Source of the DNA: a virus
Reading direction: 5' to 3' (one strand)
DNA: 64,000 nucleotides
IMG/VR virus record: IMGVR_UViG_3300045988_182851
Location: 39,491-103,490 of that record
Of the stretch, positions 8,027 through 39,749 are shown piece after piece. Positions within the stretch are counted from its first letter, which is position 1; each line of letters begins with the position of its first letter. The notes under the pieces are model-generated. The model made no database searches. It had not been told where the DNA came from and saw only the letters and a list, made by a program, of their open reading frames with translations. Made by a program: the position numbers and the translations under genes.

Positions 8027-8073
8027 AATTCTTAAATTATTGTTAAGTATATATTTTACATTTCAGTTTCTAT

Positions 8074-8127
8074 GAACTACCCGCAATCGATTTTTGTTGA
8101 ATGGAGTTTTCTTGCTATTCTTCGATA
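8074..8127 (-). repeat. R1 structured repeat, copy 1 (GAACTACyCACAACCGAC..TTGTCGG.TGGAGTTTTCTTGCTATTCTTCGATAA)
   Basis: six copies share about 85-95% identity; here it sits between the R2 promoter (8132) and the terminator (8003-8024), suggesting a stand-alone small transcript. Confidence 0.6.
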
Positions 8128-8235
8128 ATTAATATGACAGAGCTAAAATATAATTTGTCTAAAGCATAAAAAAATCGGCTTATCCCACGAAGCTTTAAGC
8201 TTCGGGGTTTTGCCGATATTATTTGATATTATAAA
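8125..8235 (-). repeat. R2 terminator-promoter cassette, copy A (also at 33685..33810 inverted)
   Basis: about 110 nt nearly identical to the reverse complement of 33685-33810; GC-rich nested hairpin atcggc..cccacgaagcttTAAagcttcgggg..gccgat, T-run, then the CTGTCATATTAAT motif. Confidence 0.6.
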
Positions 8236-15615: not shown

Positions 15616-16551
15616 TTATTCTATTTTATTTAATTCACCTGATTCTTTGTTAAATATAAATATATCTGAACTCAGATAATCTTCTTCTTGCTGAATACCA
15701 AATATCTTTAATGCTATTTGAATTTCTTCAGGAGTAAATTCATTGTATTTACATATCAACAAAATATGTGCTGTAACAGGAACAATGTATAAATTTGTTT
15801 TCAATTTCTCTGAAATATTCTTAAGCAAATTATTATTCAGAATTGCACTTGTATTATAAAAGTCAATTACATTTTGAATTGCATATATTCCTTTAATACA
15901 TTTGCTCTCAAAACCACCAGAATTACTTAGAAAAAATAATTCTTTCTTTGTTTTTTCATAATTATCATTATCTGCCAGTTGCGTCAAAAAATAATCACCT
16001 AATACACTGATAAAATATTTGTTGGAATATATTGAATGAATTGCAAGATTATATAATTCGTTTTCATCAATTTTCAGTATGTCTCTCATATAGTTATTAT
16101 CAATTACAAATATTGTACCTTCTGAATTTTCTTCAGGTATGATCACATTATAAATTATTTCAAACTCATAAAATGGCCTATGAGGAATACTGCTTAAATC
16201 TTCCATATTGTCCGGCTTTTGTATTAATTGAGGCATAATATAGTGTTTTATATCATTTGAATTAATTTCTGGAGCTAAATTATTAAGTTTATATTCACTA
16301 CCATTAGAATTTTCGTTTCTATAAAATGCTTTAGATATTGACAATGCAATTTCTTCTATTGACGAATTATTTAAATATTGTTTATATAATTGATTTAATT
16401 TAAATTCTAAGGGACACATAAACTGATTTTTAGAATGAAAAATAAGCTTATCTGATGTGTAAGCTATATCTGTTGATGTAATATCTTCAATATTTTGAAG
16501 TAATTCGAATTTAAGATATTTAAGAAAATCTTCGTAATTCATTTTTTGCAT
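15616..16551 (-). CDS. hypothetical protein (311 aa)
   Basis: long ORF with AAAAGGAGAA RBS; promoter motif at 16586-16600. Confidence 0.5.
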   Translation of the reverse strand: MQKMNYEDFLKYLKFELLQNIEDITSTDIAYTSDKLIFHSKNQFMCPLEFKLNQLYKQYLNNSSIEEIALSISKAFYRNENSNGSEYKLNNLAPEINSNDIKHYIMPQLIQKPDNMEDLSSIPHRPFYEFEIIYNVIIPEENSEGTIFVIDNNYMRDILKIDENELYNLAIHSIYSNKYFISVLGDYFLTQLADNDNYEKTKKELFFLSNSGGFESKCIKGIYAIQNVIDFYNTSAILNNNLLKNISEKLKTNLYIVPVTAHILLICKYNEFTPEEIQIALKIFGIQQEEDYLSSDIFIFNKESGELNKIE

Positions 16552-16708
16552 ATAATTAGTTCTCCTTTTATTTAGTTATATTTTTAATATGACAGAAAAA
16601 ATGAATTATTATTTTACATAAAATAATTGATGTGTGTTAAAATAAGACAGCAACTAAATGTAAATGCCTTTTATTTATTAAAATATCCCGTTTTTGTGTT
16701 CTTCTAAG

Positions 16709-17121
16709 CACTTTATTGGGTATACTATGCCTTTGCTTGGGAAAAATAATAACAATATATTGTACGTTTATTGTTGTATATTAGTTTAATATGTTAACTT
16801 TATTAACAATATATAGTTATTTAAGATTTATTAAAATATAGCTAAGATACAAAAATAATAACAATATATAGATATAAAATATGGCTTAATATACATTAAA
16901 AATAACATCATTATGTTATAGAATAGAAGAATTTGTGCAATAAAATTAACAATATATAGCTAAATATTTAATACATAAATGTAATAATGATAACAATATG
17001 TAGTAATGTATTATCCGTTGCATAGCCAATAAAGTGCCTTATATGTGTCAGAATAATACCATGATGTAGTTATCATATGCTGATTTAAGAGATAAAAAAT
17101 GTTAATTTGATAACATATAAT
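16709..17121. repeat. iteron array: six direct TAACAATATATAG-type repeats (16750, 16804, 16859, 16947, 16991, 17111) flanked by inverted repeats CACTTTATTGG..ATGC (16709-16730 / 17020-17036)
   Basis: read directly from the sequence; lies in the largest non-coding stretch (16552-17830). Confidence 0.55.
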
Positions 17122-17830
17122 TGGTAATATTAGCAATTATATATGGATTAATTGGGTACAATAGACTGTATGATTAGTGAGAAAAATAAATATAACTGAT
17201 TAATGGGATATAATTATTATTTACTAAAGTTAATTAATGGAATTACTGGGAACATATATAGAAATGATAGAGTAAAGGAAATAGATCTAAGAGCAAATAA
17301 GAAAGAATTAGTGTATATGAATGCATCTATTGAGACAGAAATGGGATTACTGGACTTACTAAGGCATTTGCAGGGCGAAGAATAGATTTGTAGGAATCTA
17401 ATAATCATAATTTTTGTAATTATCATATATTATATATGAGGGAATTATATTATTTATTAGTGTATTAAAGGCATTAATTGGGATAAATGAAGTGCTTGCT
17501 AGAGACAGGTAAGGAATTGCCAGGGAAATAAACACAAAGTATATTAAGCTGATAAATGATATTGTATAAGGATATAACAATAATAGTTATACGCTTTTAA
17601 TCCTTAATAATATTCTGGCGGTTATCATATTAAGTCTTAAAACGCTATTAAGGAATAATCAAATGTATTATATAAGGCTCTAATTTTTATATTTTAATAA
17701 TAAAAAGCGTATCAATGAAAAAGAAAATAATAGAAGGGCTTTGAAGAAGGTGTATGACATATTACACTTAAAGGAAGTGTAATCATAAAAAAATACAGCT
17801 ACCTATTGATAACTGCATTTTATTTATATA

Positions 17831-18859
17831 TTACATAAAAGATTGTATACTATATCCTTTCCGTCTGAAACGAACTCTAATCTTTTTTATTGCTTTTGAT
17901 TCAATTTGTCTGATTCGTTCTCTGGAAACATTCCATTCAGTACCTATATCTTTTAAAGTTTTAACCTTTGAACCATATCCCATTCTACTCTTAATTACAT
18001 ATAATTCTCTAGGAGTGAGACAATCTTCAACTTCTTTCCAAAGCAGTTCATTCATTTCTTTTTGAATAATCGTATCTTCAACTTTAGGTTCAGGAGCTTC
18101 TATATAATCAGCCAAACACGAATCGTCATGGCCTTCATCACTTTGAATAGGTGCATCTAATGAAACCAATTCATTAAAGCTTTGAATATGTACAAGCATT
18201 TCTTTAGTTAAAAGAGGATATCTTTGTTTTACTACATCATATAATTCATCAATTGTAGGTTTTCTTTGAAGTTTATTAGTTAAATCCACAAATGTAGTCT
18301 TAACAAAAGAATCCTGCTCTCTTACATGTACAGGGAATCTAACTAATAAATCATAATTGGCTAATTCTCTATATATACTCTGTCTAATCCAATGAGTTGC
18401 ATAAGTTGAAAATGCATATCCTAATTTATAATCAAACATTTGTATAGCTCTGTATAACCCGAAAATACCGGCCTGACATAAATCATCCATTTCAAAACTT
18501 TGCGTTTTAGCTGTAACAGCTTTAGCAATACTGATGACTAAACGCATATTAGATAAAATCAATTTTTCAGTTATTTCTTTTTTCTTTTTAGGATGTTTTT
18601 TTATCTCTTCAAATAATTTAAGAGTTTCATCTTTGGATAAAACCGGATAATCAGCAAATGATTTAATATAATAAGTTATATTATTTTCTAATAATAGTTT
18701 CTCTTTTTCATTTAAAATCTCTTTATCATTTAAAATATCGGTATAATTATCCTCTGATAAAATATTTATGTTTTCTACTGATTTATTTGTGTCAAATAAT
18801 TCATCAACATATTCATCTTTATTGTTTTTTTTATTTAATAATAAATTCTTATCTGCCAT
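17831..18859 (-). CDS. RNA polymerase sigma-70 family factor (342 aa)
   Basis: region 2 LILSNMRLVISIAKAV...QAGIFGLYRAIQMFDYKLGYAFSTYATHWIRQSI; region 4 HTH TLKDIGTEWNVSRERIRQIESKAIKKIR. Confidence 0.85.
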   Translation of the reverse strand: MADKNLLLNKKNNKDEYVDELFDTNKSVENINILSEDNYTDILNDKEILNEKEKLLLENNITYYIKSFADYPVLSKDETLKLFEEIKKHPKKKKEITEKLILSNMRLVISIAKAVTAKTQSFEMDDLCQAGIFGLYRAIQMFDYKLGYAFSTYATHWIRQSIYRELANYDLLVRFPVHVREQDSFVKTTFVDLTNKLQRKPTIDELYDVVKQRYPLLTKEMLVHIQSFNELVSLDAPIQSDEGHDDSCLADYIEAPEPKVEDTIIQKEMNELLWKEVEDCLTPRELYVIKSRMGYGSKVKTLKDIGTEWNVSRERIRQIESKAIKKIRVRFRRKGYSIQSFM

Positions 18860-18871
18860 AAAAATCTCCTC

Positions 18872-19267
18872 TTAACATTGATGTCCTAGCATTTTTAATT
18901 CATTATTTGCTTCTATTTTCATTGTACATATTCTACTAATTGCATTATATGTAAATTTAGATTGCTCTTCAAAGGTTCCTAATATATCTCGTTTAATCAT
19001 AAGCTCTTTACATTTATCTGAAGACTCTTTGTGTAATTTCATTTCTTTTACCATTGAATCTAAAATAGAATGCATTGAAGAAAAATAGGTAAAATAATTT
19101 CCTACTTCACTCAATAAATTTCCTATTTCCAATAAATCTATTTCATCTGATCTAGGAATTTCTTTCTTAAAATTAATTAAATACCATTCATATAAATCCG
19201 TTGAAGAAGCTTCAAGGATATCACTTATAGACTTATTTTTTAATTCATTATTCATATTTGTTTCCAT
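18872..19267 (-). CDS. hypothetical soluble protein (131 aa) between the CPBP protease and the sigma factor
   Basis: overlaps the upstream gene by 4 nt and ends 12 nt before the sigma gene start, suggesting an operon. Confidence 0.45.
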   Translation of the reverse strand: METNMNNELKNKSISDILEASSTDLYEWYLINFKKEIPRSDEIDLLEIGNLLSEVGNYFTYFSSMHSILDSMVKEMKLHKESSDKCKELMIKRDILGTFEEQSKFTYNAISRICTMKIEANNELKMLGHQC

Positions 19268-19270
19268 AAA

Positions 19271-20182
19271 TTATTGCTCCTTAATTTCTATATTGATATT
19301 TTCAAAACACTTAATTACAAAATAAATTAAACTCATTATGCAGACTATTAAAATGCATACCTGTAAATATATATTTGTTATAAAAAACGTAAATGGTATT
19401 AATGCCACACAGTTTATTAGAATATGATATAAGCTGCTAAGTTTAATACCATATTTATCTCTTACAGCACCTAACAAATATCCGCCAAAAGCATATATAG
19501 GGAATAAAATAAAATTAAAATGAATTATTCCAAATAAAACTGCTTGGATTATATTTGCACATAATTTATTGTTGCTTGCTTTATATGCATAGCCATAAAT
19601 TATATATCTAAAAGTCAATTCCTCAATAATAGGTGCCACAAAAGTTGCTATTATTGTAGATATAATTGTTTTTATTCCTAAACTTCCATAATCAATATCT
19701 GATACATTTACAAAATGCATTTGAATTCCTGAAATAAGCTGCAATATTACAGAAGTTAATATGAAACAAAATACAAAATTCCAATTTACTACTAATTTAT
19801 TTTTCATAAACAAATCTTTTTTATAATTGTAAAATGAGCTTTTTATACAAATAATGCACATAACAAACATTAATGTATATGTTGATATTGTGTAAATTAA
19901 TCGAAATCCTTCATAATCTATTTTAGTTGAAATTCCTCCTGCATCATTCATATACATATTTAATAGACTGTCTATAAATGTTGCAATAAACATTGAAAAT
20001 AAAATTATAAAAACAGAAATAATAAATGGAATAAAAATCTTTATATACTGTTTTGATTTTGAAAAGAAAGAATTACTTTTCATTTTGTTTTTTACCATAA
20101 AATCCATATAAGAATTTAAATCATGCTTATTTTTTTTATTTCTTAATTCCTTAATATTACTGTTATTGTTACTAAGTATCAT
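19271..20182 (-). CDS. CPBP-family (CAAX protease / Abi) intramembrane metalloprotease
   Basis: multiple TM helices; motif 1 PIIEELTFRY (EExxxR), motif FGIIHF (FxxxH). Confidence 0.65.
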   Translation of the reverse strand: MILSNNNSNIKELRNKKNKHDLNSYMDFMVKNKMKSNSFFSKSKQYIKIFIPFIISVFIILFSMFIATFIDSLLNMYMNDAGGISTKIDYEGFRLIYTISTYTLMFVMCIICIKSSFYNYKKDLFMKNKLVVNWNFVFCFILTSVILQLISGIQMHFVNVSDIDYGSLGIKTIISTIIATFVAPIIEELTFRYIIYGYAYKASNNKLCANIIQAVLFGIIHFNFILFPIYAFGGYLLGAVRDKYGIKLSSLYHILINCVALIPFTFFITNIYLQVCILIVCIMSLIYFVIKCFENINIEIKEQ

Positions 20183-20206
20183 ATATTTTCCTCCAACCTT
20201 TCTAAT

Positions 20207-20223
20207 ATATATATGACAGATAC
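20207..20223 (-). promoter_or_regulatory. conserved promoter-like motif (ATATATATGACAGATAC) with upstream TTATGTAAAG element
   Basis: drives the CPBP-ORF-sigma operon; sits after the terminator of the dnaE C-terminal gene. Confidence 0.5.
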
Positions 20224-20244
20224 AATTTTAAAAATCTTTACATA

Positions 20245-20274
20245 AAAAAATACCGCTGCAATAAACAGCGGTAA
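20245..20274 (-). terminator. rho-independent terminator (taccgctg/cagcggta hairpin plus T-run)
   Basis: 8 bp GC-containing stem, TTTTTTT on the minus strand; downstream of the dnaE-C stop at 20295. Confidence 0.55.
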
Positions 20275-20294: not shown

Positions 20295-21980
20295 TTAGCA
20301 TTTGCGTACTATTGAAGGGGCTGACATATCAGGGTTAATGAATTTCTTACATAAATGTTCAATTCCAGTTGTTGAATCAAGCCAATATAAATAATCTCCA
20401 TCAACGTCCACCAGATATTCATTAATAGAATCAAGAACATCGTTTACTTCAGAAACAGTACATATAAATCTGTATGAAGACTTATTTTTCTTTAAAGGTT
20501 TAACAGACTTAACAATAATCTGATATACAGTTTCGTCATCTGAAGATCTAAAATCATCTACTTGAATTTTTCCTGATAAACATAATTTAGCATCATTAAC
20601 AAGTAAGTCTCTAATATTCGCATAATCCTTAGAAAAACATACACCATTAATAGAACCTGTTTTATCTTCTACCTCAAAAGTTACCCATTCATATCCATTT
20701 CTATCCTTTCTTACAACAAGATTTTTAATTATACCAGATACATCGTTAACTTCTGTTGAAATATCAGAAATGGGATCTGTATAAATATTATACTCATCAA
20801 TTGGATGCCCTGTAATATAAACGCCTAACACTTCTTTTTCATCATTTAGAATCTGACCTAAATCATCTTCTACATAATCAATATCTATATTTTCAAGATC
20901 ATCTTCTAAGCTTTCTATAACTGTCTTAGCTGAATTGATACGTTTAATTATGGAATCTTTAGTTGGTATCTTTTTTGAAGTAACTTGAAAGGAAATATTT
21001 TCTTCTGAAATTCTTTCCTTAAACTCATCAAGATCAATATAATCTTCCACAAATTCAATAACTTTACTTGCGTTTTCAATAAACTTACTCTTCTCTCTGA
21101 TTTTCTTAATTGTATCCTGAATTTCTTTCATACAAATCATATCTAATGATATCATTGTTCTTGTATAACCAAGGCAATCGAAAGCACCTGCTTTAATTAA
21201 GGAACTTAATGCTTCTGCATTAATATTTGTTCGTTTGATAAAATCCTTAATATCAGAATATTCTCCATTAACATTTCTATCTTCAATAATTTTAGCTGCT
21301 TCTGCTCCAACATTCTTAATATTACTCAGACCATACAAAATGTTCCCATCTACAACATCACAATGTAAATTTGAAGCATTAATGTCCGGAGGCAATACCT
21401 TTACTCCAAAATCAAGGGCATCACTAATATCATCAGCGACTTCATCAATCTTATCAGTATAATTTATTACATTTGTAAGATAATAAGCCGGATAATAATA
21501 CTTAAGAAAAGCTGTCCAATATGATGTAACAGCATAAGCAGTAGCATGTGACTTATTAAACGCATACTTAGCAAAGTCAACCATCGCATCCCAGATTTTA
21601 TGAGCAATTTCTTCTGGTATTCCATTTGCAATACATCCTGGTACTAATGCTTCATTTTCTTTTTTAGTATCAGCATTGCCATATACAAAAGTGTGTCTTT
21701 CAGCATCAATTTCATCCTGATGTTTTTTTGACATAGCTCTACGGACTAAATCAGAACGCCCCCATGTATATCCTGCTAAATCACGAACAATCTGCATTAC
21801 CTGTTCCTGATAAACTATCTGTCCATAAGTAGTTGACAAAATTGGCTCTAATTGAGGACATAAATATTTAATCTTAGATGCATCCTTTTTACCTTCTATG
21901 AAATCAGGTATAAACTTTTCAGGACCAGGACGATATAAAGCATTCATTGCTATTAAATCTTCAATACCTGTTTTATTCAT
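20295..21980 (-). CDS. dnaE: DNA polymerase III alpha subunit, C-terminal part (fingers C-terminal half, HhH, OB fold), separately translated
   Basis: DLIAMNALYRPGP, YGQIVYQEQVMQI, FAKYAFNKSHATAYA, VLPPDINAS, HhH NIKNVGAEAAKII, OB GVYITGHP; own RBS AAAGGAGAAATTTAAAATG and own promoter motif at 22017. Confidence 0.85.
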   Translation of the reverse strand: MNKTGIEDLIAMNALYRPGPEKFIPDFIEGKKDASKIKYLCPQLEPILSTTYGQIVYQEQVMQIVRDLAGYTWGRSDLVRRAMSKKHQDEIDAERHTFVYGNADTKKENEALVPGCIANGIPEEIAHKIWDAMVDFAKYAFNKSHATAYAVTSYWTAFLKYYYPAYYLTNVINYTDKIDEVADDISDALDFGVKVLPPDINASNLHCDVVDGNILYGLSNIKNVGAEAAKIIEDRNVNGEYSDIKDFIKRTNINAEALSSLIKAGAFDCLGYTRTMISLDMICMKEIQDTIKKIREKSKFIENASKVIEFVEDYIDLDEFKERISEENISFQVTSKKIPTKDSIIKRINSAKTVIESLEDDLENIDIDYVEDDLGQILNDEKEVLGVYITGHPIDEYNIYTDPISDISTEVNDVSGIIKNLVVRKDRNGYEWVTFEVEDKTGSINGVCFSKDYANIRDLLVNDAKLCLSGKIQVDDFRSSDDETVYQIIVKSVKPLKKNKSSYRFICTVSEVNDVLDSINEYLVDVDGDYLYWLDSTTGIEHLCKKFINPDMSAPSIVRKC

Positions 21981-22066
21981 TTTAAATTTCTCCTTTCAAT
22001 TCATAACTATATAATTTATGACAGAAAATTAAAAAAAGCGTCCAATTTTGGACGCTTGCATGAATA

Positions 22067-22372
22067 TTAAAAAGAATACTTGTTACATATATTTTCTTTT
22101 ATATAAGTGATCAAATTTTTAGCATAATCTATTCTGTCTTTTAATTTATCAATATCATTAATATCATATGAAACATTACCAGTAATACTAATATAAAAAT
22201 CATCTTTTATGGTTTTAATTTCAATATCATAATATGGAATCTTTGGAGTAAAAAAGAATCTTATGACTTTACCTGTTCTTAAATCTCTTCTTAATAGAAT
22301 TCTATATGTTTTATTATCGTATTCATCTATTATCCATGGACCGGATTCATATGTTCTAATAAAAGTTACCAT
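22067..22372 (-). CDS. hypothetical protein (101 aa)
   Basis: minus-strand ORF. Confidence 0.45.
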   Translation of the reverse strand: MVTFIRTYESGPWIIDEYDNKTYRILLRRDLRTGKVIRFFFTPKIPYYDIEIKTIKDDFYISITGNVSYDINDIDKLKDRIDYAKNLITYIKENICNKYSF

Positions 22373-22953
22373 TATCTTACTTCTTCCTCTCTGTTATCTT
22401 TATTAATTTCAGTATGAATTACATCTGGCATAATTTTATCTTCATCATCTTCTCCGCCTAAATCTAAATCAATATCTGATAGTTCATTTGTGTCAATATT
22501 GTTTGTTATATTACTAATATTAACACTTTTACAATTTTGAGTCATTGCCTTTATAACATCATCTATAGTTTTAGCATCTCTACCGATTCCGTCAAGATAA
22601 AAAGCAGCCGTTACCTGGGCGCAAAAATCTGCGATTATATGTCTATCAGTTGTTTCAGGGCAAAACTTAGGAACATTATAATATTCACAATCTCTATTGA
22701 TTTGGGAACACGCAGCTATTGCAGCTTCATGTTTAATTCTCCGATTTTTATCCATAGACTGAATAGCTTCTCGTAATTCTTCTCCCTCAAGTGTAGCATA
22801 TTTAATTGGAGTTGAATAGTTTTGATGATAAACAATCTGTACATATTCTCCAAATGCGGCCATATTGTAATTTAACATATCTAAATCATTCTCTCTATAT
22901 TCATTATCTGGCGAATTTATTGCATTTACTAATTCCTTAAATTCTTTAATCAT
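22372..22953 (-). CDS. hypothetical protein (193 aa), acidic C-terminus
   Basis: minus-strand ORF; stop overlaps the next start. Confidence 0.45.
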   Translation of the reverse strand: MIKEFKELVNAINSPDNEYRENDLDMLNYNMAAFGEYVQIVYHQNYSTPIKYATLEGEELREAIQSMDKNRRIKHEAAIAACSQINRDCEYYNVPKFCPETTDRHIIADFCAQVTAAFYLDGIGRDAKTIDDVIKAMTQNCKSVNISNITNNIDTNELSDIDLDLGGEDDEDKIMPDVIHTEINKDNREEEVR

Positions 22954-23052
22954 ATTTTTTACTCTCCTTCCATTTATTGTTATAATAAATAAATGACAGA
23001 AAAATAAAATAACAAGTACCCATTAATAGGTACTTGTTATTAAGCATTTGTT

Positions 23053-23499
23053 TTAATTTGAATTACTCTTATCATGTACAAAATATAATTTTTGTATTAA
23101 TTCAGATTTTCTTTTTTCATACTGAAATAAATCATTACATTCACATGATAAAAAACTTGCAGCAGAATCAATCTGTTTTACAATTTCCTTTACTATACAA
23201 TCGATGATTTCCTTTGGTGATTCCAATAGTTTAATTAAGCCTAAATGCTCCCCTTCATGAATTATGAAAGCTGTATCTGGTGTCAAAACTAGCGTTGCTG
23301 TAGAGCCTTCAGAATCAAAATAACAGGATGCCGTATTATTGTTATAATAATTAATGCACATATCTAATAAGTCATTTGAGACATCGGTTAAATATGAAGC
23401 GTTTACTCTACAATTTGTCTTTTCGAATTTAATATTACACCAACCATTTGTTAAAATTTCAATTATCATGATTTTCTCCTTAAATATAATTATAGGCAA
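23053..23499 (-). CDS. hypothetical protein (148 aa)
   Basis: minus-strand ORF. Confidence 0.45.
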   Translation of the reverse strand: MPIIIFKEKIMIIEILTNGWCNIKFEKTNCRVNASYLTDVSNDLLDMCINYYNNNTASCYFDSEGSTATLVLTPDTAFIIHEGEHLGLIKLLESPKEIIDCIVKEIVKQIDSAASFLSCECNDLFQYEKRKSELIQKLYFVHDKSNSN

Positions 23500-24371
23500 A
23501 CAATGTTGCCATTTTTAAGTATACTTATAATACTGTTAAGTTCATACAAACCTAATATCTGCTCACTAATTTCATTTAACATATTATCTGATACATTAGC
23601 GTTATAAGCACCAAGTTCTACATCTGTTTTTATTGTTACTAAAATTTTGGACAACAAAATATTGTCTTCACTATTTATTAAACAATTTGAAATACTTTTC
23701 CCTTTAGACATATTAGATTCAATATCTGAAATATTCATATATATGTTAAACAAATTTCCATACTTATGTATTAGTTTACTTGCAGTTTTAGGACCAATAC
23801 CTGCAGCTCCAGGAATATTATCCGATTTATCTCCCATTAATGCTTTTACATCAATAAACTGTTTAGGAGTAACGAAATACTCATTCATAATTTCTACCGG
23901 AGTCCAAATATCTTCCGGGTTGTTTGGAACAACTAATGATACTAAACCATTACATAATTGTAACAAATCATGATCTGCAGATATAATATTAACCTTATTT
24001 CCTGCTTCACTTTCAATAGTTGAAATTGTCCCTATAATATCATCTGCCTCATATCCTTCTTTTTCAATAACACATATATTCATTGTTTTAAGAATAGGAA
24101 CAATAGCCTGTCTCTGAATCTTAAATTCTTCCGGTGCAGGTTCTCTGATTGCCTTATATTCATTGTACATTAAATGCCTGAAAGTTGGCTTTGCAGTATC
24201 AAACGCAACAATTAATTCATCAGGACTATACTTTTCTTTCATATATAGAATTGTATTTAAAGCTCCTTTAATTGCATTAGTCGGAAATCCCTTTGAGGTT
24301 TTTAATTCTGGAACACCGTAAAAAGATCTTCTGAGAATATAATTCCCATCAAAAATCATAATATTTTTCAT
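23490..24371 (-). CDS. 5'-3' exonuclease / flap endonuclease (Pol I N-terminal-like); start moved to MKNIMIF
   Basis: IMIFDGNYILRRSFYG, FPTNAIKGALNTIL, EADDIIGT, ISADHDLLQL, HhH LMGDKSDNIPGAAGIGPKTASKLIHKYG; RBS AAAGGAGAAAAATTA before the ATG at 24371. Confidence 0.85.
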   Translation of the reverse strand: MKNIMIFDGNYILRRSFYGVPELKTSKGFPTNAIKGALNTILYMKEKYSPDELIVAFDTAKPTFRHLMYNEYKAIREPAPEEFKIQRQAIVPILKTMNICVIEKEGYEADDIIGTISTIESEAGNKVNIISADHDLLQLCNGLVSLVVPNNPEDIWTPVEIMNEYFVTPKQFIDVKALMGDKSDNIPGAAGIGPKTASKLIHKYGNLFNIYMNISDIESNMSKGKSISNCLINSEDNILLSKILVTIKTDVELGAYNANVSDNMLNEISEQILGLYELNSIISILKNGNIVCL

Positions 24372-24403
24372 TAATTTTTCTCCTTTATAATTTTTAATAT
24401 ATT

Positions 24404-24418
24404 TATGACAGAAAAAAA
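24404..24418 (-). promoter_or_regulatory. conserved promoter-like motif (TATGACAGAAAAAAA)
   Basis: about 33 nt before the flap-endonuclease start. Confidence 0.5.
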
Positions 24419-24470
24419 GCAGGAAACATAAGTCTCCCGCTTTCAAAAAATTTTATTCAGTTATGAAAAA

Positions 24471-24737
24471 TTAAGATATTGAATTTCTTTCACTTAAGAA
24501 TTTTTCCACAGCATCTTCAACAGCTTCATATTCAGTAAGTCCATTACCTTCTGCATAAGTATCATATGCTGCTTCACCAATATCAATATAATCATTCTCA
24601 GTAATATCAGAATGATATTGAGGCTGAATAATCTCTTTAGCTGTATTAATCATCCATGTTGAAACAAATTCCTTATGAACAGCATAAATTTCGTCATATG
24701 TTAATTTTATTTCCTTACCATTTCTTATTATTGTCAT
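24471..24737 (-). CDS. hypothetical protein (88 aa)
   Basis: minus-strand ORF. Confidence 0.4.
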   Translation of the reverse strand: MTIIRNGKEIKLTYDEIYAVHKEFVSTWMINTAKEIIQPQYHSDITENDYIDIGEAAYDTYAEGNGLTEYEAVEDAVEKFLSERNSIS

Positions 24738-24750
24738 GTCTTATTCTCCT

Positions 24751-25020
24751 TTAGTTGTTATTATTTTCGTCAGAATTATCATATATGACGCTTTCAATTA
24801 TATTAATTGCTGTATTTGCATGAATAACTTCCTCGCCATCATCGTTAGAATATCCATCGTCATCATATGTACTTTCAGTCAGCCAACTTGCCTCAGAAAC
24901 TTCTTTAGAAGCTTCTGAAATCTCGCTTATTAAAGTATTTTTAATGATATTCAACATATTCTTTTCTGTTTCTGATTCTGAAGTTTTAATAAAGTCATTT
25001 ATAATATTTAAAGTTTTCAT
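24751..25020 (-). CDS. hypothetical protein (89 aa), paralog of the 4636..4968 ORF
   Basis: see the 4636..4968 entry. Confidence 0.5.
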   Translation of the reverse strand: MKTLNIINDFIKTSESETEKNMLNIIKNTLISEISEASKEVSEASWLTESTYDDDGYSNDDGEEVIHANTAINIIESVIYDNSDENNNN

Positions 25021-25035
25021 AAAATTCCTTTCTTT

Positions 25036-25494
25036 TTACAATGTACTTTTTATAACCTTAACAGGTTCTAATCTGCCGTTTATAAATGAAGCAGTTCCTA
25101 ATGTTTTATCAGTATTTTTAGAAGATTCAAAGAAATCATTTGCCATATCCTCATTTGAAAAATATGAATATTCTCCTGAATTGTCTCCGCAATCTGACTC
25201 ATATCCTATCCAAACATAATAAAATGAAAATCTTTCAAGGCTATCACTGTCGTCAGGGATTTCTCCGTTCCAATCATCATTTTCTTTTATATCTTCTTCT
25301 AATTCATATTTAAACTCGCTCATCATATTAGGATCGTCTAAATATACACATTTATGGTAATTATCAACTGCAATTGCGCATTTCTGTCCTAATGGATGCA
25401 GTAAATAATTCTTAGGCACTTCCAATAATGCTCCTATCATATCATTTACTGTTTCTAAGTTATTTTCCTTAATTTCAAATGCATTAGTTTTCAT
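25036..25494 (-). CDS. hypothetical protein (152 aa)
   Basis: minus-strand ORF. Confidence 0.45.
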   Translation of the reverse strand: MKTNAFEIKENNLETVNDMIGALLEVPKNYLLHPLGQKCAIAVDNYHKCVYLDDPNMMSEFKYELEEDIKENDDWNGEIPDDSDSLERFSFYYVWIGYESDCGDNSGEYSYFSNEDMANDFFESSKNTDKTLGTASFINGRLEPVKVIKSTL

Positions 25495-25578
25495 AATTTT
25501 ATTCTCCTTTTTAAATTTTATAATAATACAATGACAGAAAAATAAAAAAACTGGCTACTAATAGTAACCAGTTTAATT

Positions 25579-26568
25579 TTATAACTTTACAATTTTCTCA
25601 TTAACTTCCATTCTAAATGTATTGATTTTGTCTATATCCGGCTCATCTGGCAATACAGAGTTTTTACATGCATTTTCAAACTTATTCTTGTATTCATCTA
25701 CTATTTCAAAGAAATGTTTATTAGGGATTCCATTTTCATCAAGATATACACCATTTCTAATATCCATCAACAAATCATGTTCTTTAATTCTTTTCGTTTG
25801 AATTTTCCCTTCAGAAACTAAATCAATTCCCATCATATACAATCTAAGTAAATGCATACTATGTTTTGCTATTTTACCATGATTTAATGCATGTTCATTC
25901 CTTTTACTTGTTTTCCGGTAATCTCTTAAAGTGTTATTAAATTCTGAAAGCATTCCTGACAAATCTTCCATTGAACACTGTGTTGCAATAATATTGCATT
26001 TGATTTTGCCGTCAACCAAATAAAAAGACACATTATTTTCATCTAAATTGTACTTATCGTTCATTTTCTTGGACATATTATTAAGCACTCCAGAAATGTG
26101 TCTATTTAATTCTTCTTCCGTTAAAGCAGCGTTGGTCTTCTGCTGCATACGGTATAACTGTTGTAATGCATATTCACTAAATGTATTAATACATCTATTC
26201 GATAAAAAAATATCTTTATTTTTTAATAAAAGCTCCCCAATTTCATTTTTATAAATATAATCATCTGTATCTAATCCTAAAAGTTCAATAGTGTTTGGAT
26301 TGCATTTAGCTAATAAGTCAATAATTTTGTCAAAACTATAAATAGTTGTATCTGTATTAACGTCTACAAAATTTTCAAAATCATTACCTAACAAGATATC
26401 TTCTTTTTTCCTAACAGCAACTCCTCTTATATCAATATCGCTTTCTGGAAGATTTGTCCCATATGCTCTGCTACCACCTAATCCAAGTATACAAATATTC
26501 TTATCTAAATTTTGATTTTCCTTTAAAAATGAATACTCAGGCATATTTAATATATTTTTATTTATCAT
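25579..26568 (-). CDS. Pol-beta superfamily nucleotidyltransferase (329 aa) with an alpha-helical C-terminal domain
   Basis: ILGLGGSRAYGTNLPESDIDIRGV matches the GS-x(9-13)-DhDh signature; further acidic residues VDVNTD about 30 aa downstream. Confidence 0.55.
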   Translation of the reverse strand: MINKNILNMPEYSFLKENQNLDKNICILGLGGSRAYGTNLPESDIDIRGVAVRKKEDILLGNDFENFVDVNTDTTIYSFDKIIDLLAKCNPNTIELLGLDTDDYIYKNEIGELLLKNKDIFLSNRCINTFSEYALQQLYRMQQKTNAALTEEELNRHISGVLNNMSKKMNDKYNLDENNVSFYLVDGKIKCNIIATQCSMEDLSGMLSEFNNTLRDYRKTSKRNEHALNHGKIAKHSMHLLRLYMMGIDLVSEGKIQTKRIKEHDLLMDIRNGVYLDENGIPNKHFFEIVDEYKNKFENACKNSVLPDEPDIDKINTFRMEVNEKIVKL

Positions 26569-26592
26569 ATTCTCTTTCCTATCCTTGTAATT

Positions 26593-26648
26593 GAACTACC
26601 CACAACCGGCTATTGTCGGTTGTGGTTTTTTTGCTTAATTGCGATAAT
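26593..26648 (-). repeat. R1 structured repeat, copy 2 (divergent, 9 bp stem ccacaaccg/cggttgtgg)
   Basis: between the 26658 stop and the 26568 start. Confidence 0.55.
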
Positions 26649-26657
26649 ATCATTCTT

Positions 26658-27290
26658 TTATTTTCTAACAATAGCAGAAAAATCTACTGACTGTAAAATC
26701 TTAATGATATCTTCTACTTCAGGACTTCTCCATGCAGTCATAGCATAGGTATGAGCGTACTCATCGTAATGATAATGATTTGCCTTTAGATGTTCAGCGG
26801 CTGCCTTTTCTGTTAAAAACATTGTGTTTTCATAAATTTTATCTCTATATGCATAACAGGTGAAAGTATATCTGCCATAATTATGCTCATTCAACCAAGT
26901 CTTTAAATCATCAAGATCAGCTAAACATTCCTCATAATCATTATCTTCTTTTGATGTAACATAATATCCATCATATTCTTTTGAAATAACCCAAGAGTCA
27001 CCGTTTTCTTCAAATTCCTTATTAAAAAATACAATTGCATCATCAATATTATCAGCAACTTCTTCGACTGCCTCATTATCTATTAATGTTACACCGTCTT
27101 CATATCCTTCTGGAACAATACACTTTTCTTTCCCCATAATAACCCAAAATCGAGGATCAGCTTGTCCTACATGGTCCTGTGTATTTAATTCATGCTGCAA
27201 ATCAGACAAAAATTTGATTTCTTTATCTGTAATTTTATGTTTCTCTACTGTGTCTGGATGGTATTGTAAATGTTCATGAAATATTGCCAT
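26658..27290 (-). CDS. hypothetical protein (210 aa)
   Basis: minus-strand ORF. Confidence 0.45.
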   Translation of the reverse strand: MAIFHEHLQYHPDTVEKHKITDKEIKFLSDLQHELNTQDHVGQADPRFWVIMGKEKCIVPEGYEDGVTLIDNEAVEEVADNIDDAIVFFNKEFEENGDSWVISKEYDGYYVTSKEDNDYEECLADLDDLKTWLNEHNYGRYTFTCYAYRDKIYENTMFLTEKAAAEHLKANHYHYDEYAHTYAMTAWRSPEVEDIIKILQSVDFSAIVRK

Positions 27291-27317
27291 ATTTTTCTCC
27301 TTAAACTTTATTTATTT

Positions 27318-27554
27318 TTATTCAGTATAGTATTGGAATGCACAATCATACATTTGTTTCCCAGTTATCTGATCTGTGAATATAGGGCAATGCCAATCCT
27401 TATTAAATCCTGTTTCCTTACACCATTCATTAATAACTCTAGTAGTAATTGGTGTGACAAATACATATAAATCTGATTCATGGTGAAACATATCTTTTTC
27501 AGAATATCCAACCTCAATGAATCGTTGCATAAGAGTTTTATTATTTTTCTCCAT
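27318..27554 (-). CDS. hypothetical protein (78 aa)
   Basis: minus-strand ORF with AAAGGAGAACAATATTATG start context. Confidence 0.45.
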   Translation of the reverse strand: MEKNNKTLMQRFIEVGYSEKDMFHHESDLYVFVTPITTRVINEWCKETGFNKDWHCPIFTDQITGKQMYDCAFQYYTE

Positions 27555-27589
27555 AATATTGTTCTCCTTTATTTATTATAATTTAAAAG

Positions 27590-27606
27590 AAATATGACAG
27601 AAAAAA
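27590..27606 (-). promoter_or_regulatory. conserved promoter-like motif (AAATATGACAGAAAAAA)
   Basis: immediately after the terminator of the dnaE N-terminal gene. Confidence 0.5.
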
Positions 27607-27630
27607 CGCACATCATAATGACATGCGTTT
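27599..27630 (-). terminator. terminator hairpin (aacgca..tgcgtt) plus T6 after dnaE exon 2
   Basis: minus strand reads AAAACGCATGTCATTATGATGTGCGTTTTTTCTGTCATAT; follows tandem TAG TGA stops. Confidence 0.45.
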
Positions 27631-27658
27631 TAATACAAAATATTCAATTAACTATTCA

Positions 27659-28414
27659 CTATGAGCATAACTTCTTAAGGTTATTCCTCATACCGGCTGA
27701 CTCAAACTGGAAAACATTCTTAGTTCTTCCTTTTGCATATACTTCTTTGTATACCTTATCAGCTTTAGGACCCTCTAATGGAATATTCATTACATCAATT
27801 ACTTCTCCTGTATCTCTCTGAATCATTCTGAGTGTGTCAGTAATAATTGTAAGAGTTTTTAATCCAAGAAAATCCATTTTTAATAATCCATTAGCTTCGC
27901 ACTGAATCATATCCATTTCTGTAGTTTTAATTCCCTTTTTTCCATCTCTAATAGGAATATAATCAGTAACATCATTACTATCATAAATAATAACACCTGC
28001 GGCATGTTGTGCGTATGTCGTAAGCATACCTTCACAATGAGCTGCAATATTAAGAATAGAAATAGCATCTGGATTACTATTATATTCATCCTTTAAGAAA
28101 TCTAACAAAGAAATGCTGTCCTGAATATTAATGCCTAATTCATCAACCTTATTAGTATCTTTCATGCCAACAATATCTTCAAAATTAGTTGCTTTAGCAG
28201 GCACTTTCTTACGAATCTGATCTCCTAAAGATAAGAATTTCTTTTCATCATCATAAGCTTTCTTTCCATAATATCTTGCAGCATCTCTGATAGCACCTTT
28301 AGCCTGCTGTCTTGATTCTGTAATAATTCCAACAACAGCTTCACTACCATATTTAGCTCTTACATACTCAATTGTCTTTTCTCTTACTCCAAGAGCAAGA
28401 TCGCTATCGATATC
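27659..28414 (-). CDS. dnaE: DNA polymerase III alpha, exon 2 of the N-terminal gene (palm C-terminal part and fingers N-terminal part)
   Basis: begins DIDSDLALGVREKTIEYVRAKYG (compare DIDIDF..R.EVI.YV..KYG), ends FQFESAGMRNNLKKL then CS and TAG TGA; the ORF-track start at 28417 is a TTG inside the intron. Confidence 0.8.
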   Translation of the reverse strand, partial: DIDSDLALGVREKTIEYVRAKYGSEAVVGIITESRQQAKGAIRDAARYYGKKAYDDEKKFLSLGDQIRKKVPAKATNFEDIVGMKDTNKVDELGINIQDSISLLDFLKDEYNSNPDAISILNIAAHCEGMLTTYAQHAAGVIIYDSNDVTDYIPIRDGKKGIKTTEMDMIQCEANGLLKMDFLGLKTLTIITDTLRMIQRDTGEVIDVMNIPLEGPKADKVYKEVYAKGRTKNVFQFESAGMRNNLKKLCS

Positions 28415-29354
28415 CAAATATACCCCTACTTTCGTAGTACTTTAACACTTGTATAAGTGGGATTAGACTATATCTCAATATAATATTGTTAATATTATAT
28501 TTCAACGCACTTCCAACTGTAACCATTCTCAGTTGTACTCCTTAAAAAGGATAGTCGTTACACTTTAAAATAAATAATATTATATACGAACAATTTTTAA
28601 GTCATTCCATTTTAAATATTTATGCATTGAGGAATAACTTGCGTTATATTTTTCTTTAGCATATCGAGCTGCTGCTAATATGCTTTCAAATCTATCAATT
28701 AATATATCTCCTTTATATAATTTACAACACTTATAATTTCTTACAGGAGACATAGTTTTATAACTATCATATAAATTGTCTTTTCTAGTACACCATTCTA
28801 AATTATTCACCTTACAATTTTGTTTATTTTTGTCTTTATGATTAACTTCTGGTAGATTATAAGGATTAGGAATAAAATTCATCGCAACTAATCGATGCAA
28901 TAAATATTTTTTATTATCTAATCTTATCATCCTGTAATTCTTTTTACTATCTAAAAAAGGTTTAAGTTGTCGAATTTTCCCTTGTTTTATACTAAAAATC
29001 TTTCCATATGAAGTTATGTAATATTCGTGGTGATTTTTAATTTCTATTATTTTTTCACCTTTTTCAAGGAATGATGTAAAATTGATATAATCTATCATAA
29101 ATATACACCTCCTTATTTATATAATATTATTTATAATCTTAGCACGGTATCGCCTGCTATCCTTCAATATCTTTTATATAAAAATATTAGGACCGTAGGT
29201 TCTCTTACGAAGCTGCTTCGTCTATGGGTTAAGCTATATATCCTGTTGTGACACTTTATATAGCAGTCTTATTCAACTTCTACCGTTAGCACTTAATAAT
29301 AAAATATTAAGCACACCTCTGAGTTAGAGTCCACGCTGAACGCCCAATATATTT
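28415..29354 (-). other. group-I-like self-splicing intron (about 940 nt) interrupting dnaE between SMP and DIDSD, carrying an HNH homing endonuclease ORF
   Basis: exon 1 ends ..ATGCCT (U before the 5' splice site); the intron ends in G before GATATCGAT; joining restores the conserved ERVSMP|DIDSD; GC-richer structured segments at 29100-29350 and 28420-28580. Confidence 0.7.
28580..29098 (-). CDS. HNH homing endonuclease (HNH_3 / AP2-type, intron-encoded)
   Basis: HRLVAMNFIPNPYNLPEVNHKDKNKQNCKVNNLEWCTRKDN and an N-terminal YITSYGKIFS-type motif; RBS AAGGAGG before the ATG. Confidence 0.8.
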   Translation of the reverse strand: MIDYINFTSFLEKGEKIIEIKNHHEYYITSYGKIFSIKQGKIRQLKPFLDSKKNYRMIRLDNKKYLLHRLVAMNFIPNPYNLPEVNHKDKNKQNCKVNNLEWCTRKDNLYDSYKTMSPVRNYKCCKLYKGDILIDRFESILAAARYAKEKYNASYSSMHKYLKWNDLKIVRI

Positions 29355-31148
29355 AGGCATACTTACTCTTTCTGGATTTAAGAATCGTTCAAAAATCAGA
29401 TTATACTTAAATGGATCAATTCCGGTAATACCAAGTAAATATGTAACCAATGAACCGGCACCTGAACCTCTTCCAATGCCTATTCCAATTCCGGTATTAT
29501 AATTGTGAGCCTTAACATACTCTTTTGCACCTTCAATTGTTAAAGGTACTTCTGATAGTTTATCCATAGGTACTAATCCACAAATTCTTCCATATTCCAG
29601 GAAGTCCTTTACAATTAAATGATAATCGGCAAAGCCCATCTGAATAATAATATTAAGTTCGTATTCCATTCGTTTCTGATGTTCTTCATCCCATCCTTTT
29701 CCGTTAGGATATCTCCAATTAATTCCCTTAATTGCTTCAGATCTTAATAATTCGTTTGAGTCCTTGTTCTTATCAAATACTGGATAATGATTAGATTTTT
29801 CTGGAATATAAGCACATCTTTTTCCAATTACATTTAAGTTATTGAGTGCTTCTGCAACCTGATCATCTGTTAATATAGCTGATAAGGCCTGAGCAAGTTC
29901 GTAAGGTGTTTTTACATATAACTCTTTATCTGATTCCGACTCACTTATCTTAATAAATCTTAAAAACTTAGCTACATTACGCATATCAATACTTCTATCA
30001 GAATTATCTGCCATATGTGCATCATTAGCAGCAACTAATGGGATATTATGCTTCCTTGCTAACTGAGCTAACACAGGATATGTTCTGCTTTCCATTTCAA
30101 GCCCATGATTCTGAACTTCAATGTAATAATTACCTGCTCCAAAAATTTCCTGATAAAAAAGCATTGTCTTTTCTGCTTCAGACATTAATTCTATTGGGCT
30201 TTTCTTTAACGATTCATAATGCTGTATCTTATTTTCATGATTAATGTATTCCTCTACCTTAAGACTTATATCCTTTAACTCGGCTTTCTTAGCATTAACT
30301 AATTTTCTGACATTAGGAATTTTATCTTTAGCTTCCAGAATTTTATTATTTATCTCTTCATATTCGTTAATCAGTTTAATAAGCTCTGGATCATCATCAT
30401 TTAAACACTTCCTTGCATCTCTTAATTTTCTTGAAATCTGTGTCCTTTCTGATTTAAGTTCCTTGGAATCACGAATATTAATCAATTCATCTAAATCTGC
30501 CGATACCCTTTCAAATTCATCTTTAGCTGAAAGATATTCTTTATCATCAGGACTTATACAATCACGTATCACTAGCTCGTCTTTTTCAGTAGTATGCTGC
30601 TGTGCTTTTCTTTCTCTGTTAATCATTTTATCCAAAACATCATCTGATAATAATTGCAGAGCTGGTGCGCCCGAAACGCAAGCTGAAGTTGCTATTATAT
30701 CACCGTTAAAGTTATATTTCTTTAAATCTGATATTGTAATAACAGGCTTTCCCATTCTTTTTTCAGAAGCCTTAGAATTTAACTTATCAATAATATGCTT
30801 GCCTCTTTCTGAAGTGGCCAACATAATCATATGGCCAATCTGCTCATTTATCTTAAATGGCGGCACTTCAATATAAGCCTCTACGCCATAAATGATATTA
30901 AATGGATGTTCTTCAGTACTTATTTTCTTAGCGTAATCAATACATGTTTGCATTGCTGAAAATGATGCATGGTCCGTAACAGCAAATTTAGTATATCCTG
31001 CATTAAATGCAGCATCTAAATAACTTTTAGGTTCATCTACGGCATCAAACAAAGAGCCTCCTGGATGGTTATGTTCACACACTGTAACTCCTGATTCAAT
31101 AACCTTTTTTGTTAATTCTCCAATTTTTACATGTTCAAACATTGACAT
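29355..31148 (-). CDS. dnaE: DNA polymerase III alpha, exon 1 (PHP domain and palm) of the N-terminal gene
   Basis: [20 protein letters not shown]; [40 protein letters not shown]; RBS AAAGGAGGAAATTTAATG; about 170 aa coiled-coil insertion inside PHP. Confidence 0.85.
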
Positions 31149-33684: not shown

Positions 33685-33810
33685 ATCCTATTTTTATAAT
33701 ATCAAACAATATTGGCAAACCCCGAAGCTTCAGGCTTCGTGGGATAAGCCGATTTTTTATACTTTAAACAAAATTATATTTTAGCTCTGTCATATTAATT
33801 ATAGGTTAAA
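33685..33810 (+). repeat. R2 terminator-promoter cassette, copy B (inverted relative to copy A), with promoter CTGTCATAT on the plus strand at 33787-33795
   Basis: reverse complement nearly identical to 8125-8235; faces the IS left end and tnpB. Confidence 0.6.
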
Positions 33811-33818
33811 TCCTAAAT

Positions 33819-38882: not shown

Positions 38883-39749
38883 TTATTTTGTTTGATAAAG
38901 AAGATATGACAGAAAATTATTTACATTAGAATGTGAACTGTTATTTCTTATTACTAAAATATTTCTGATAACAATTATGAAAAATATAATACTCATTACG
39001 ATTAGACAAATATTTTGTAACATAACAGGCATAAAAGAGTACAATACACTACTTGCATTAACTCCAATATGAATTAAAATAGAGGACAATAAATTATCTG
39101 TTTTTATATATACATAGGCTAATATAATACCGAAAATAAATGCATAAGTGCTTTGAATAATATTAAAATGCACTAATCCAAAAACGAAAGCTGATATATA
39201 AATTGAGCTTACATCTGGTTTCTTAAAGAATTTGTTTTGCTTTATTATTTTTGTAATACCGTATCTAAATATTAATTCTTCAACAACTGGCGTAATAACA
39301 CCTGTTATTAAGAGTACTTGAAGCCAATTTCCGGTTACAGCAACATTCATCAAAGAATTATATGAATTAGAAACCAAATTATTAGGTAAGGAATCTATTA
39401 CCACAGAAGCTAAAAAATTCATAATAATGCCTGTTAAAATAAATGTCTTGACATCTTTTAATGATAATTTTGAAATAAATATGATTGATTTATTAACTTT
39501 ATATTCTTTAAGCATAACAAACCCAAGTATTATAATATCGGAAACAAATAATGCAGGCATAATTAATTCACTGAGCATACTAAGATAACTATATGAACGT
39601 AAATTACCTGTTTCTATACATACATATAAATTATCATACCATTGTGAGTCAGAAAACAATTTAAAAATAAATACACCCAATGTACATATAATTTGAGTAA
39701 TAAGAAAAACAAATACTATTCCAATCATCTTTGTAATTTGTTTAATCAT
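38883..39749 (-). CDS. CPBP-family (CAAX protease / Abi) intramembrane metalloprotease, second copy
   Basis: ITPVVEELIFRY and FVFGLVHFN motifs; six or more TM helices. Confidence 0.65.
   Translation of the reverse strand: MIKQITKMIGIVFVFLITQIICTLGVFIFKLFSDSQWYDNLYVCIETGNLRSYSYLSMLSELIMPALFVSDIIILGFVMLKEYKVNKSIIFISKLSLKDVKTFILTGIIMNFLASVVIDSLPNNLVSNSYNSLMNVAVTGNWLQVLLITGVITPVVEELIFRYGITKIIKQNKFFKKPDVSSIYISAFVFGLVHFNIIQSTYAFIFGIILAYVYIKTDNLLSSILIHIGVNASSVLYSFMPVMLQNICLIVMSIIFFIIVIRNILVIRNNSSHSNVNNFLSYLLYQTK

Follow-up and report, generated by a model that had tools for sequence, protein, structure and literature searches.

What purpose is served when a very large element of the human gut encodes, in a row, an intramembrane protease, a small soluble protein and a sigma factor, and does the first of these control the last? 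The question is raised by a cassette of three genes in the IMG/VR virus record IMGVR_UViG_3300045988_182851, of which positions 39,491 to 103,490 were analysed (64,000 nucleotides; this whole stretch is called the window, and all coordinates are counted from its first letter unless a related locus, labelled L, is named). An initial annotation had read the cassette as a proteolytic switch, in which the protease, a member of the CPBP family, would activate the sigma factor either by removing an N-terminal extension or by acting on the small protein as an anti-sigma factor or adaptor. The analysis leads elsewhere: with a probability slightly better than even, the three genes are co-expressed with the replication genes of the element from a promoter of generic type, and their products act separately. 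The cassette and its boundaries are listed here in the direction of transcription.

20251-20273, minus strand: intrinsic-terminator-like hairpin and T-run 5' of the cassette (9-bp stem with 5 GC pairs, T7 tail)
20204-20232, minus strand: promoter-like region of the cassette, with the core CTGTCATAT at 20211-20219
19271-20182, minus strand: gene for a CPBP/Rce1-like intramembrane glutamic protease, 303 aa (open reading frame (ORF) list, Pfam PF02517)
18872-19267, minus strand: gene for a small soluble helical-hairpin protein, 131 aa (ORF list, structure model)
17831-18859, minus strand: RpoD-like sigma-70-family gene, 342 aa (ORF list, Pfam)
17790-17821, minus strand: intrinsic-terminator-like hairpin straight after the sigma stop codon, closing the unit

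The three ORFs lie exactly where the initial annotation had placed them, in coordinates as well as in strand, and they can be regarded as a discrete unit because a terminator-like hairpin is present on each side. The hairpin on the 5' side marks the end of the preceding unit, that of a dnaE C-terminal fragment, and equivalent hairpins are found upstream of the CPBP gene in relatives of the element (L004, 6581-6608, and L008, 6945-6973). An AGGAG-type ribosome-binding site precedes each of the three genes. With regard to spacing, the reported gap of 12 nt between the 131-aa gene and the sigma gene was found, while the CPBP and 131-aa genes, described as overlapping by 4 nt, are actually separated by a 3-nt spacer (TAA TTT ATG). 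That the CPBP, 131-aa and sigma genes form one transcription unit is supported. Readthrough of the intervening stop codon, which would fuse the 131-aa protein to the sigma factor, was considered and rejected: the window and L004 have the two ORFs in the same frame, L008 does not, a distribution attributed to chance.

The single promoter motif that had been assigned to the three genes (20207-20223) is real and occurs far above chance, though other units have it too. The core, CTGTCATAT, is present in 29 copies in the window, against 0.86 expected, and 27 of them are on the coding strand; the distance from the motif to the ATG is mostly 31-43 nt, and the usual order is terminator hairpin, T-run, CTGTCATAT, approximately 22 AT-rich nt, AAGGAG and ATG. 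The motif can be read as an extended -10 element (TGn followed by CATATw), with a C at the inferred position -12 and with no obvious -35 element. The cassette copy ends 28 nt before the CPBP ATG, a ribosome-binding site (GGAGG) being found in between, and all three lineages that carry the cassette have an unchanged core TCTGTCATAT ahead of their CPBP gene. Other copies precede recA, both UvrD-type helicase genes, a methylase gene, a DUF5688 gene and many small ORFs, and variants with one mismatch precede the dnaE fragments. No copy is found between the three cassette genes, where one-mismatch matches lie inside coding sequence and are not accompanied by the T-run. With one motif upstream and none internal, the three genes therefore appear to share one promoter, of the same class as the promoters of the surrounding replication genes. 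Examples of the motif are as follows.

63889-63897, 51779-51787, 43109-43117, 38904-38912, 20211-20219 and 16587-16595, minus strand: copies of CTGTCATAT, of which that at 38904-38912 is inside the 3' end of a second CPBP gene, ahead of the methylase gene
33787-33795, plus strand: copy ahead of a TnpB ORF

Two further copies, at 8140 and 59018, have in common a following stretch of approximately 60 nt that is free of ORFs (ATCGAAGAATAGCAAGAAAACTCCAT...TTGCGnGTAGTT; regions 8040-8200 and 58920-59080, minus strand), the next ORF starting more than 100 nt away; this stretch may be a small RNA that occurs twice. Approximately 70 nt of flank upstream of the motif at 8140 are found again at the motif that precedes the plus-strand TnpB gene (33730-33890).

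The distal gene of the cassette encodes a sigma-70-family protein of 342 aa, as had been stated. Pfam detects region 2 (Sigma70_r2, PF04542, 53.7 bits) and region 4 (Sigma70_r4, PF04545, 41.8 bits); region 3 (PF04539) scores 13.3 bits against a cut-off of 25.3, with helices at residues 177-229 of the structure model in the expected place, and there is no Pfam match to region 1.1 (PF03979) or region 1.2 (PF00140), the latter being alignable by eye. Among the models for whole sigma factors, the protein passes that of the sigma-70 superfamily only (TIGR02937, 97.4 bits versus a cut-off of 42.9), its RpoD_Cterm score of 179 bits lying below the cut-off of 354 that defines the RpoD equivalog. The closest cellular relatives are RpoD proteins of Clostridia, at approximately 37% identity. 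Matches to MzaA, the sigma factor of an anti-phage system, in NCBIfam (below cut-off) and PADLOC were attributed to the shared sigma-70 domains.

The N-terminal extension of 60 aa that had been described was not confirmed. In the alignment, region 1.2 of the phage sigma begins at approximately residue 63, and cellular RpoDs have approximately 95-105 residues before it, so that the N-terminus of the phage protein is a shortened counterpart of region 1.1 and not an extension. Residues 1-58 are modelled with a predicted local distance difference test score (pLDDT) below 50, while domains 2, 3 and 4 are modelled with confidence; the segment is acidic (15 D/E versus 8 K/R), and the N-termini of the three orthologues share essentially just the first two residues ('MA') and the acidic composition. 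No transmembrane (TM)-like or membrane-anchoring hydrophobic segment was found in the protein by hydropathy scan.

Of the residues of the phage sigma that contact the promoter, those reading the -35 element are near-canonical (RERIRQIE), whereas region 2.4 (window 18371-18397, residues 155-163), which is WWIRQAITR in cellular sigmas, reads HWIRQSIYR here, and HWIRQSIYR, NWIRQYIIR or NWVKQYMLR across the phage orthologues. In E. coli numbering, the W433 position is occupied by W in 32 of 32 cellular-type sigmas and by H or N in the phage lineage, and the T440 position by T in 25 of the 32 and by Y, I or L in the phage lineage. The substitutions T440I and Q437H of E. coli sigma-70 suppress the T:A to C:G change at -12 (reviewed in PMC2613000). 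The phage orthologues, with I, L or Y at the T440 position and with a C at the inferred -12 of the motif, recall these suppressors; in contrast to them, the phage residues are natural variants in a diverged sigma, are combined with the change of W433 to H/N, and have a specificity deduced from comparison. Since the changes at W433 and T440 favour tolerance of a C at -12, the phage sigma probably reads the CTGTCATAT class of promoters, its own promoter included.

The 131-aa protein, which had been put forward as an anti-sigma factor or adaptor, has a confident structure model (pLDDT 87.7) in which a pair of short helices packs against a long helical hairpin, and the hydropathy scan agrees with the earlier statement that no TM-like segment is present. 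It matches no Pfam family and, at a meaningful level, no PHROG, NCBIfam or PADLOC family (one weak PHROG match, E 3.5e-4). It is a member of a broad, undescribed family, of which an exhaustive profile search returned 151 cluster representatives, nearly all 112-150 aa long (about 125 aa is typical), matched over their full length and having in common the C-terminal motif K.QY.A.SR.(I/V)T(I/V)K.(E/Q).N.EL.M. The neighbours of the distant members recur as follows.

Loci L113 and L135: RecG-type helicase directly downstream of the family member
Bacillus phage vB_BpsS-140 (L018): UvsW-type helicase directly downstream and RecA two genes upstream of the member
Loci L112, L114 and L124: RecD2-type helicase two genes upstream
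Loci L014/L015: full-length DnaE directly downstream
Locus L110: DnaE one gene away
Locus L021: RecA 4 kb away
Loci L126-L132: UvrD-type helicase about 5 kb away

In the 44 loci of distant members, among which, by an estimate from the locus tables, about a dozen distinct lineages are represented with 5 kb or more on either side, a hidden Markov model (HMM) scan found neither a CPBP gene nor an RpoD-like sigma gene; the sigma HMM is biased towards RpoD and missed a truncated sigma gene annotated in vB_BpsS-140, which, 6.3 kb downstream, is the single sigma gene within 7 kb of a distant member. Precomputed Pfam tables for loci L013-L021 contain neither CPBP nor PF04542/PF04545 among the called genes. 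From these neighbourhoods it appears that the family tracks replication and recombination genes, not sigma factors, and the recurrent association makes a replication or recombination accessory the most likely identity of the 131-aa protein. The anti-sigma or adaptor role was not borne out: comparison with known anti-sigma domains revealed no similarity in sequence or fold, no family being matched, and the protein's relatives are not associated with sigma or CPBP genes elsewhere. Two more specific identifications were tried and dropped. The T4 recombination mediator UvsY was not supported by profile-level homology, and a C-terminal Cys that might have served as a CAAX-like signal is restricted to this lineage, being absent from the wider family.

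The first gene of the cassette encodes a protein with the CPBP/CAAX-protease fold, in agreement with the initial annotation (PF02517, Rce1-like, 57.7 bits versus a Pfam gathering cut-off of 22.4). The EExxxR, FxxxH and HxxxN motifs are intact (E187, E188, R192, H221, H253, N257), and conservation of the catalytic residues, the absence of which would have told against the proteolytic switch, is complete across the three orthologues and a paralogue in the window. A Kyte-Doolittle scan gives approximately seven TM-like hydrophobic segments, indicative of a multi-pass protein, preceded by a basic N-terminal tail of approximately 45 aa that is probably cytoplasmic. The paralogue was also correctly located by the initial annotation, in another operon.

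38883-39749, minus strand: second CPBP protease, 288 aa (PF02517, 74.6 bits), in a separate cassette with a 96-aa ORF, an N6/N4 methylase gene and a gene for a small TM protein

The two CPBPs of the window are 36% identical over the catalytic core, and both score under the cut-off of every named CPBP subfamily in NCBIfam (MroQ, MrtJ and others). The sub-cut-off matches include MroQ-type and CTERM-sorting proteases, which act on membrane-anchored substrates, and one copy of the CPBP is labelled 'lysostaphin resistance A-like protein' by NCBI. CPBP/Abi-domain proteins of Firmicutes, such as SpdC/LyrA, MroQ and the bacteriocin-immunity proteins, have the same Pfam domain, motifs and multi-pass topology; they differ from the window CPBPs in that the latter fall outside the named subfamilies and occur as two copies on a giant phage-like element. 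As far as can be read from their domains, the CPBP and the sigma factor are both ordinary members of their families that lie outside the named subfamilies. From what the CPBP family is known to do, the protease probably acts on membrane or envelope targets. The second CPBP being part of a separate methylase cassette, a CPBP gene in this genome need not accompany the sigma gene. A recurrent pairing of CPBP with a small protein was considered as well, and the 96-aa protein ahead of the second CPBP was rejected as a homologue of the 131-aa family (hhalign, 0.2%). The 96-aa ORF (39746-40036) has a 42%-identical homologue in the relative L009 (1080-1358), located just upstream of dnaE and with no adjoining CPBP, so that the pairing of the 96-aa ORF with a CPBP gene is not conserved either.

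Conservation of the three-gene linkage in relatives was confirmed at 39-64% amino-acid identity. In two other lineages (L004-L007 and L008-L011), dnaE, CPBP, a 128/130-aa protein and the sigma gene follow each other in the same order as in the window, and three diverged lineages of the element thus share the arrangement. Compared with the window proteins, the small protein is 62-64% identical, the sigma factor 45-48% and the CPBP, whose gene evolves fastest within the block, 39-43%; for the DnaE fragments, together with the HNH ORF that lies among them, the value is 65-79%. By contrast, no gene is shared with the window over the 8 kb downstream of the sigma gene, and rearrangement is seen upstream of dnaE; the flanks vary around an order that is kept, and the conserved core is dnaE-CPBP-small protein-sigma. 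The relatives have an extra gene of 324/335 aa after the sigma gene and before the terminator, unrelated to the next gene of the window, and in L004 the terminator matching 17790-17821 comes after this 324-aa gene. In L009, four small ORFs are inserted between the CPBP and small-protein genes, from which it follows that this junction is not obligatorily coupled. Since all three lineages belong to one element family, conservation of the linkage is indistinguishable from inherited synteny.

Outside this lineage the pairing was not encountered. At none of 79 other RpoD-like sigma loci in IMG/VR is a CPBP gene or a member of the 131-aa family present within approximately 6 kb, as judged with a CPBP HMM built from four sequences and a three-motif regular expression, some of the 79 contigs being possibly cellular. 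Five 'CPBP' matches obtained with a loose regular expression near other viral sigma genes are oxidoreductases or unknowns by Pfam. The phage collection searched holds essentially no close relative of the CPBP. No description of a phage CPBP-sigma module, or of co-transcription of the two genes, was found in the literature; a comparative study of jumbo phages treats RpoD-like sigmas, AsiA and gp33, and no CAAX or CPBP protease (PMC7824862).

How, then, may the cassette work? In the preferred reading, transcription would begin at the generic promoter-like element (T-run and CTGTCATAT), which also precedes the dnaE, recA, helicase and methylase cassettes, and would end at the intrinsic terminator. 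The diverged RpoD-type sigma would redirect the host core RNA polymerase to phage promoters, probably of the CTGTCATAT class, its changes from W433 to H/N and from T440 to Y/I/L allowing for the C at -12 that is found in the CATATw hexamer. The 131-aa protein would serve replication or recombination, and the CPBP, fast-evolving and one of at least two paralogues, would act at the membrane or envelope in immunity, exclusion or interference with host signalling. Several points weigh against this reading. The order CPBP-small protein-sigma survives approximately 50% protein divergence amid changing flanks, which could reflect selection for linkage, and the three genes depend on one promoter, with no internal copy of the motif. 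Assignment of the motif to the phage sigma over the host sigma-A comes from two residues, the replication role of the 131-aa protein comes from gene neighbourhood while its fold is a generic helical hairpin, and the functions of all three proteins are deduced from sequence and gene context. Furthermore, the window, which holds no structural genes, does not show the element to be a phage.

The proteolytic switch of the initial annotation, in which the CPBP removes the N-terminal 60 aa of the sigma or degrades the 131-aa protein, draws on the co-transcription and tight packing of the genes, on a linkage kept in three lineages, on the intact and invariant catalytic residues and on the general knowledge that PrsW, related to the CPBP superfamily, makes the site-1 cut in RsiW. 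In the PrsW-RsiW-sigma-W system of Bacillus subtilis, a multi-pass protease of a CPBP-related superfamily is indeed genetically associated with sigma control; however, RsiW, the substrate of PrsW, is a single-pass membrane anti-sigma factor encoded beside an extracytoplasmic function (ECF) sigma, whereas the cassette has no membrane-anchored candidate, its sigma is RpoD-like and not ECF, its protease belongs to PF02517 and not to PrsW, and no site-2 protease is present within the window. The pro-sigma-E/SpoIIGA and pro-sigma-K/SpoIVFB pairs are similar to the cassette in having residues ahead of the conserved regions of the sigma and a membrane protease encoded nearby. Their pro-sequences, of 20-29 aa, are membrane-associating and are cut by an aspartic protease or a site-2 protease metalloprotease, thus by enzymes of other families, while the N-terminus of the phage sigma occupies the position of region 1.1, of which it is a shorter version, and is acidic, poorly modelled and unconserved beyond its first two residues. 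Both analogies fail, since the cassette lacks a membrane-anchored substrate and a conserved pro-sequence and its protease is of a different family. The lack of TM-like segments in the sigma and in the 131-aa protein, the absence of an anti-sigma fold or family, the four ORFs tolerated in L009, the separation of the small family from sigma and CPBP genes in other lineages and the 0 of 79 other viral sigma loci with a CPBP all go against the switch as well, and we consider it improbable. A looser version, in which the CPBP or its conserved basic N-terminal tail controls the sigma at the membrane, whether by sequestering or cutting the acidic tail or by way of the 131-aa protein, is rated even lower; if true, an RpoD-like sigma with a promoter class of its own would be kept in check by a protease or membrane tether encoded by the phage, an arrangement that would be new in the control of phage transcription programmes. 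The protease may instead be directed at the host, where, by cleaving or binding a regulator at the membrane (a signalling peptide, a histidine kinase or a membrane-bound anti-sigma factor), it would damp or redirect the transcriptional responses of the host at the time when the phage sigma captures the RNA polymerase. Such a host-takeover module would agree with the rapid evolution of the CPBP (39-43% identity), expected of a host-interaction protein, with the sub-cut-off matches to MroQ-type and CTERM-sorting proteases, with the conserved CPBP-sigma linkage and with the control of the WalK histidine kinase by the Abi-domain protein SpdC in S. aureus (PMC5854430). It is unlikely nonetheless, a little less so than the switch, for no target can be identified, the second CPBP sits in an unrelated methylase cassette, the CPBP-sigma pairing is confined to this lineage, and the generic motif gives the same co-expression to all the replication genes. 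Finally, the 131-aa protein may connect replication with transcription, linking the phage sigma-RNA polymerase complex to the replisome or to a recombination helicase in a way comparable to T4 gp33/gp45: in this lineage its gene comes after the dnaE C-terminal fragment and before the sigma gene, family members adjoin DnaE or helicase genes elsewhere, its C-terminal motif ends in the conserved peptide-like EL.M, and in vB_BpsS-140 a sigma gene is found 6.3 kb downstream of the family member. Yet a sigma gene within 6-8 kb is lacking for most members of the family, neither gp33 nor any other RNA-polymerase-binding protein was found to resemble the 131-aa protein, and a helical hairpin is a generic fold, so that this coupling role is in our view as improbable as the proteolytic switch.

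In the preferred reading of separate functions under a common promoter class, the cassette resembles classic phage sigma cassettes. As with SPO1 gp28 and gp33/34, T4 gp55 and the sigmas of group 2 jumbo phages, a sigma-70-family protein would be expressed together with replication genes, and a phage-specific promoter consensus recurs across the genome. The RpoD-like sigmas of group 2 jumbo phages have been described as secondary acquisitions from cells (PMC7824862). The sigma described here differs from known phage sigmas in that it keeps regions 1.2 to 4 and near-canonical -35 residues together with changed -12 residues, in the promoter class, which has an extended -10 element with C at -12, and in the co-transcription with a CPBP gene.

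With regard to the element itself, the window is approximately 28% GC, with nearly all genes on one strand, and holds no tRNA, no Rfam family and no structural phage gene. Its larger genes encode DnaE (in pieces), two UvrD-type helicases, RecA, RecJ and a primase-like protein, besides a flotillin-like protein, a nucleotidyltransferase and an IS605-type TnpB. The window had no match in the phage or plasmid collections, the cassette block was not found in species-representative bacterial genomes, and IMG/VR holds one near-identical contig of 95 kb. The exact proteins of the element are found on more than 1000 contigs of human-gut assemblies, the longest being 831 kb, and the block is carried on contigs of 332 and 422 kb (among loci L102-L107 and L143-L146); one copy has been filed by NCBI under a metagenome-assembled genome of Lachnospira pectinoschiza. 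The element is very large (at least 330-420 kb), low in GC, Lachnospiraceae-associated, phage-like and resident in the human gut. That it is a phage is plausible, given its listing in IMG/VR, the HNH insertions in dnaE and a YopX gene in a relative; a prophage or some other giant element is also conceivable.

Some features of the surroundings deserve mention in their own right. DnaE is encoded in separate pieces (29307-31148, 27659-28417 and 20295-21980, in the region 20295-31148), with an HNH endonuclease gene between the first two and approximately 5.7 kb of other genes (an RlaP-type nucleotidyltransferase, a 5'-3' exonuclease and others) before the C-terminal fragment; in strain variants and relatives the N-terminal part is fused (849 aa), and the C-terminal fragment of 561/569 aa is always separate. 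Just downstream of the sigma gene there is an ORF-poor stretch of 1.28 kb (16552-17830), where the GC skew is reversed (+0.148 at 16001-18000, versus approximately -0.1 to -0.34 elsewhere and near zero around the plus-strand TnpB gene). Five direct copies and one overlapping inverted copy of a ATAACAATATATAG-like repeat are found there at 16749-17003, and the same repeat cluster is present in the equivalent ORF-free gaps of L004 (10853-11150) and L008 (11422-11796); the stretch is a candidate replication origin or regulatory region. IS605-family TnpB/OrfB (Cas12f-like) genes occupy variable positions between strains (window 33843-35192, plus strand; L008 12309-13980; L106/L107; L146) and account for most of the local structural variation near the block.

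What is new in this cassette is modest, namely that CPBP and sigma genes are co-transcribed in this lineage, that a small-protein family so far undescribed goes with replication genes, and that a sigma factor and a promoter class appear to be naturally matched through a C at -12. Since the element is extremely common in human-gut metagenomes, its transcription programme is of real interest, and the combination of a sigma factor altered in the residues that would read position -12 with a genome-wide promoter carrying C at -12 offers a clean system in which the re-tuning of sigma specificity by a phage may be followed. The 131-aa family, found beside RecG/UvsW, RecD2, RecA and DnaE, is a candidate new replication or recombination accessory, and two intact CPBP proteases on a giant phage-like element are a further lead.

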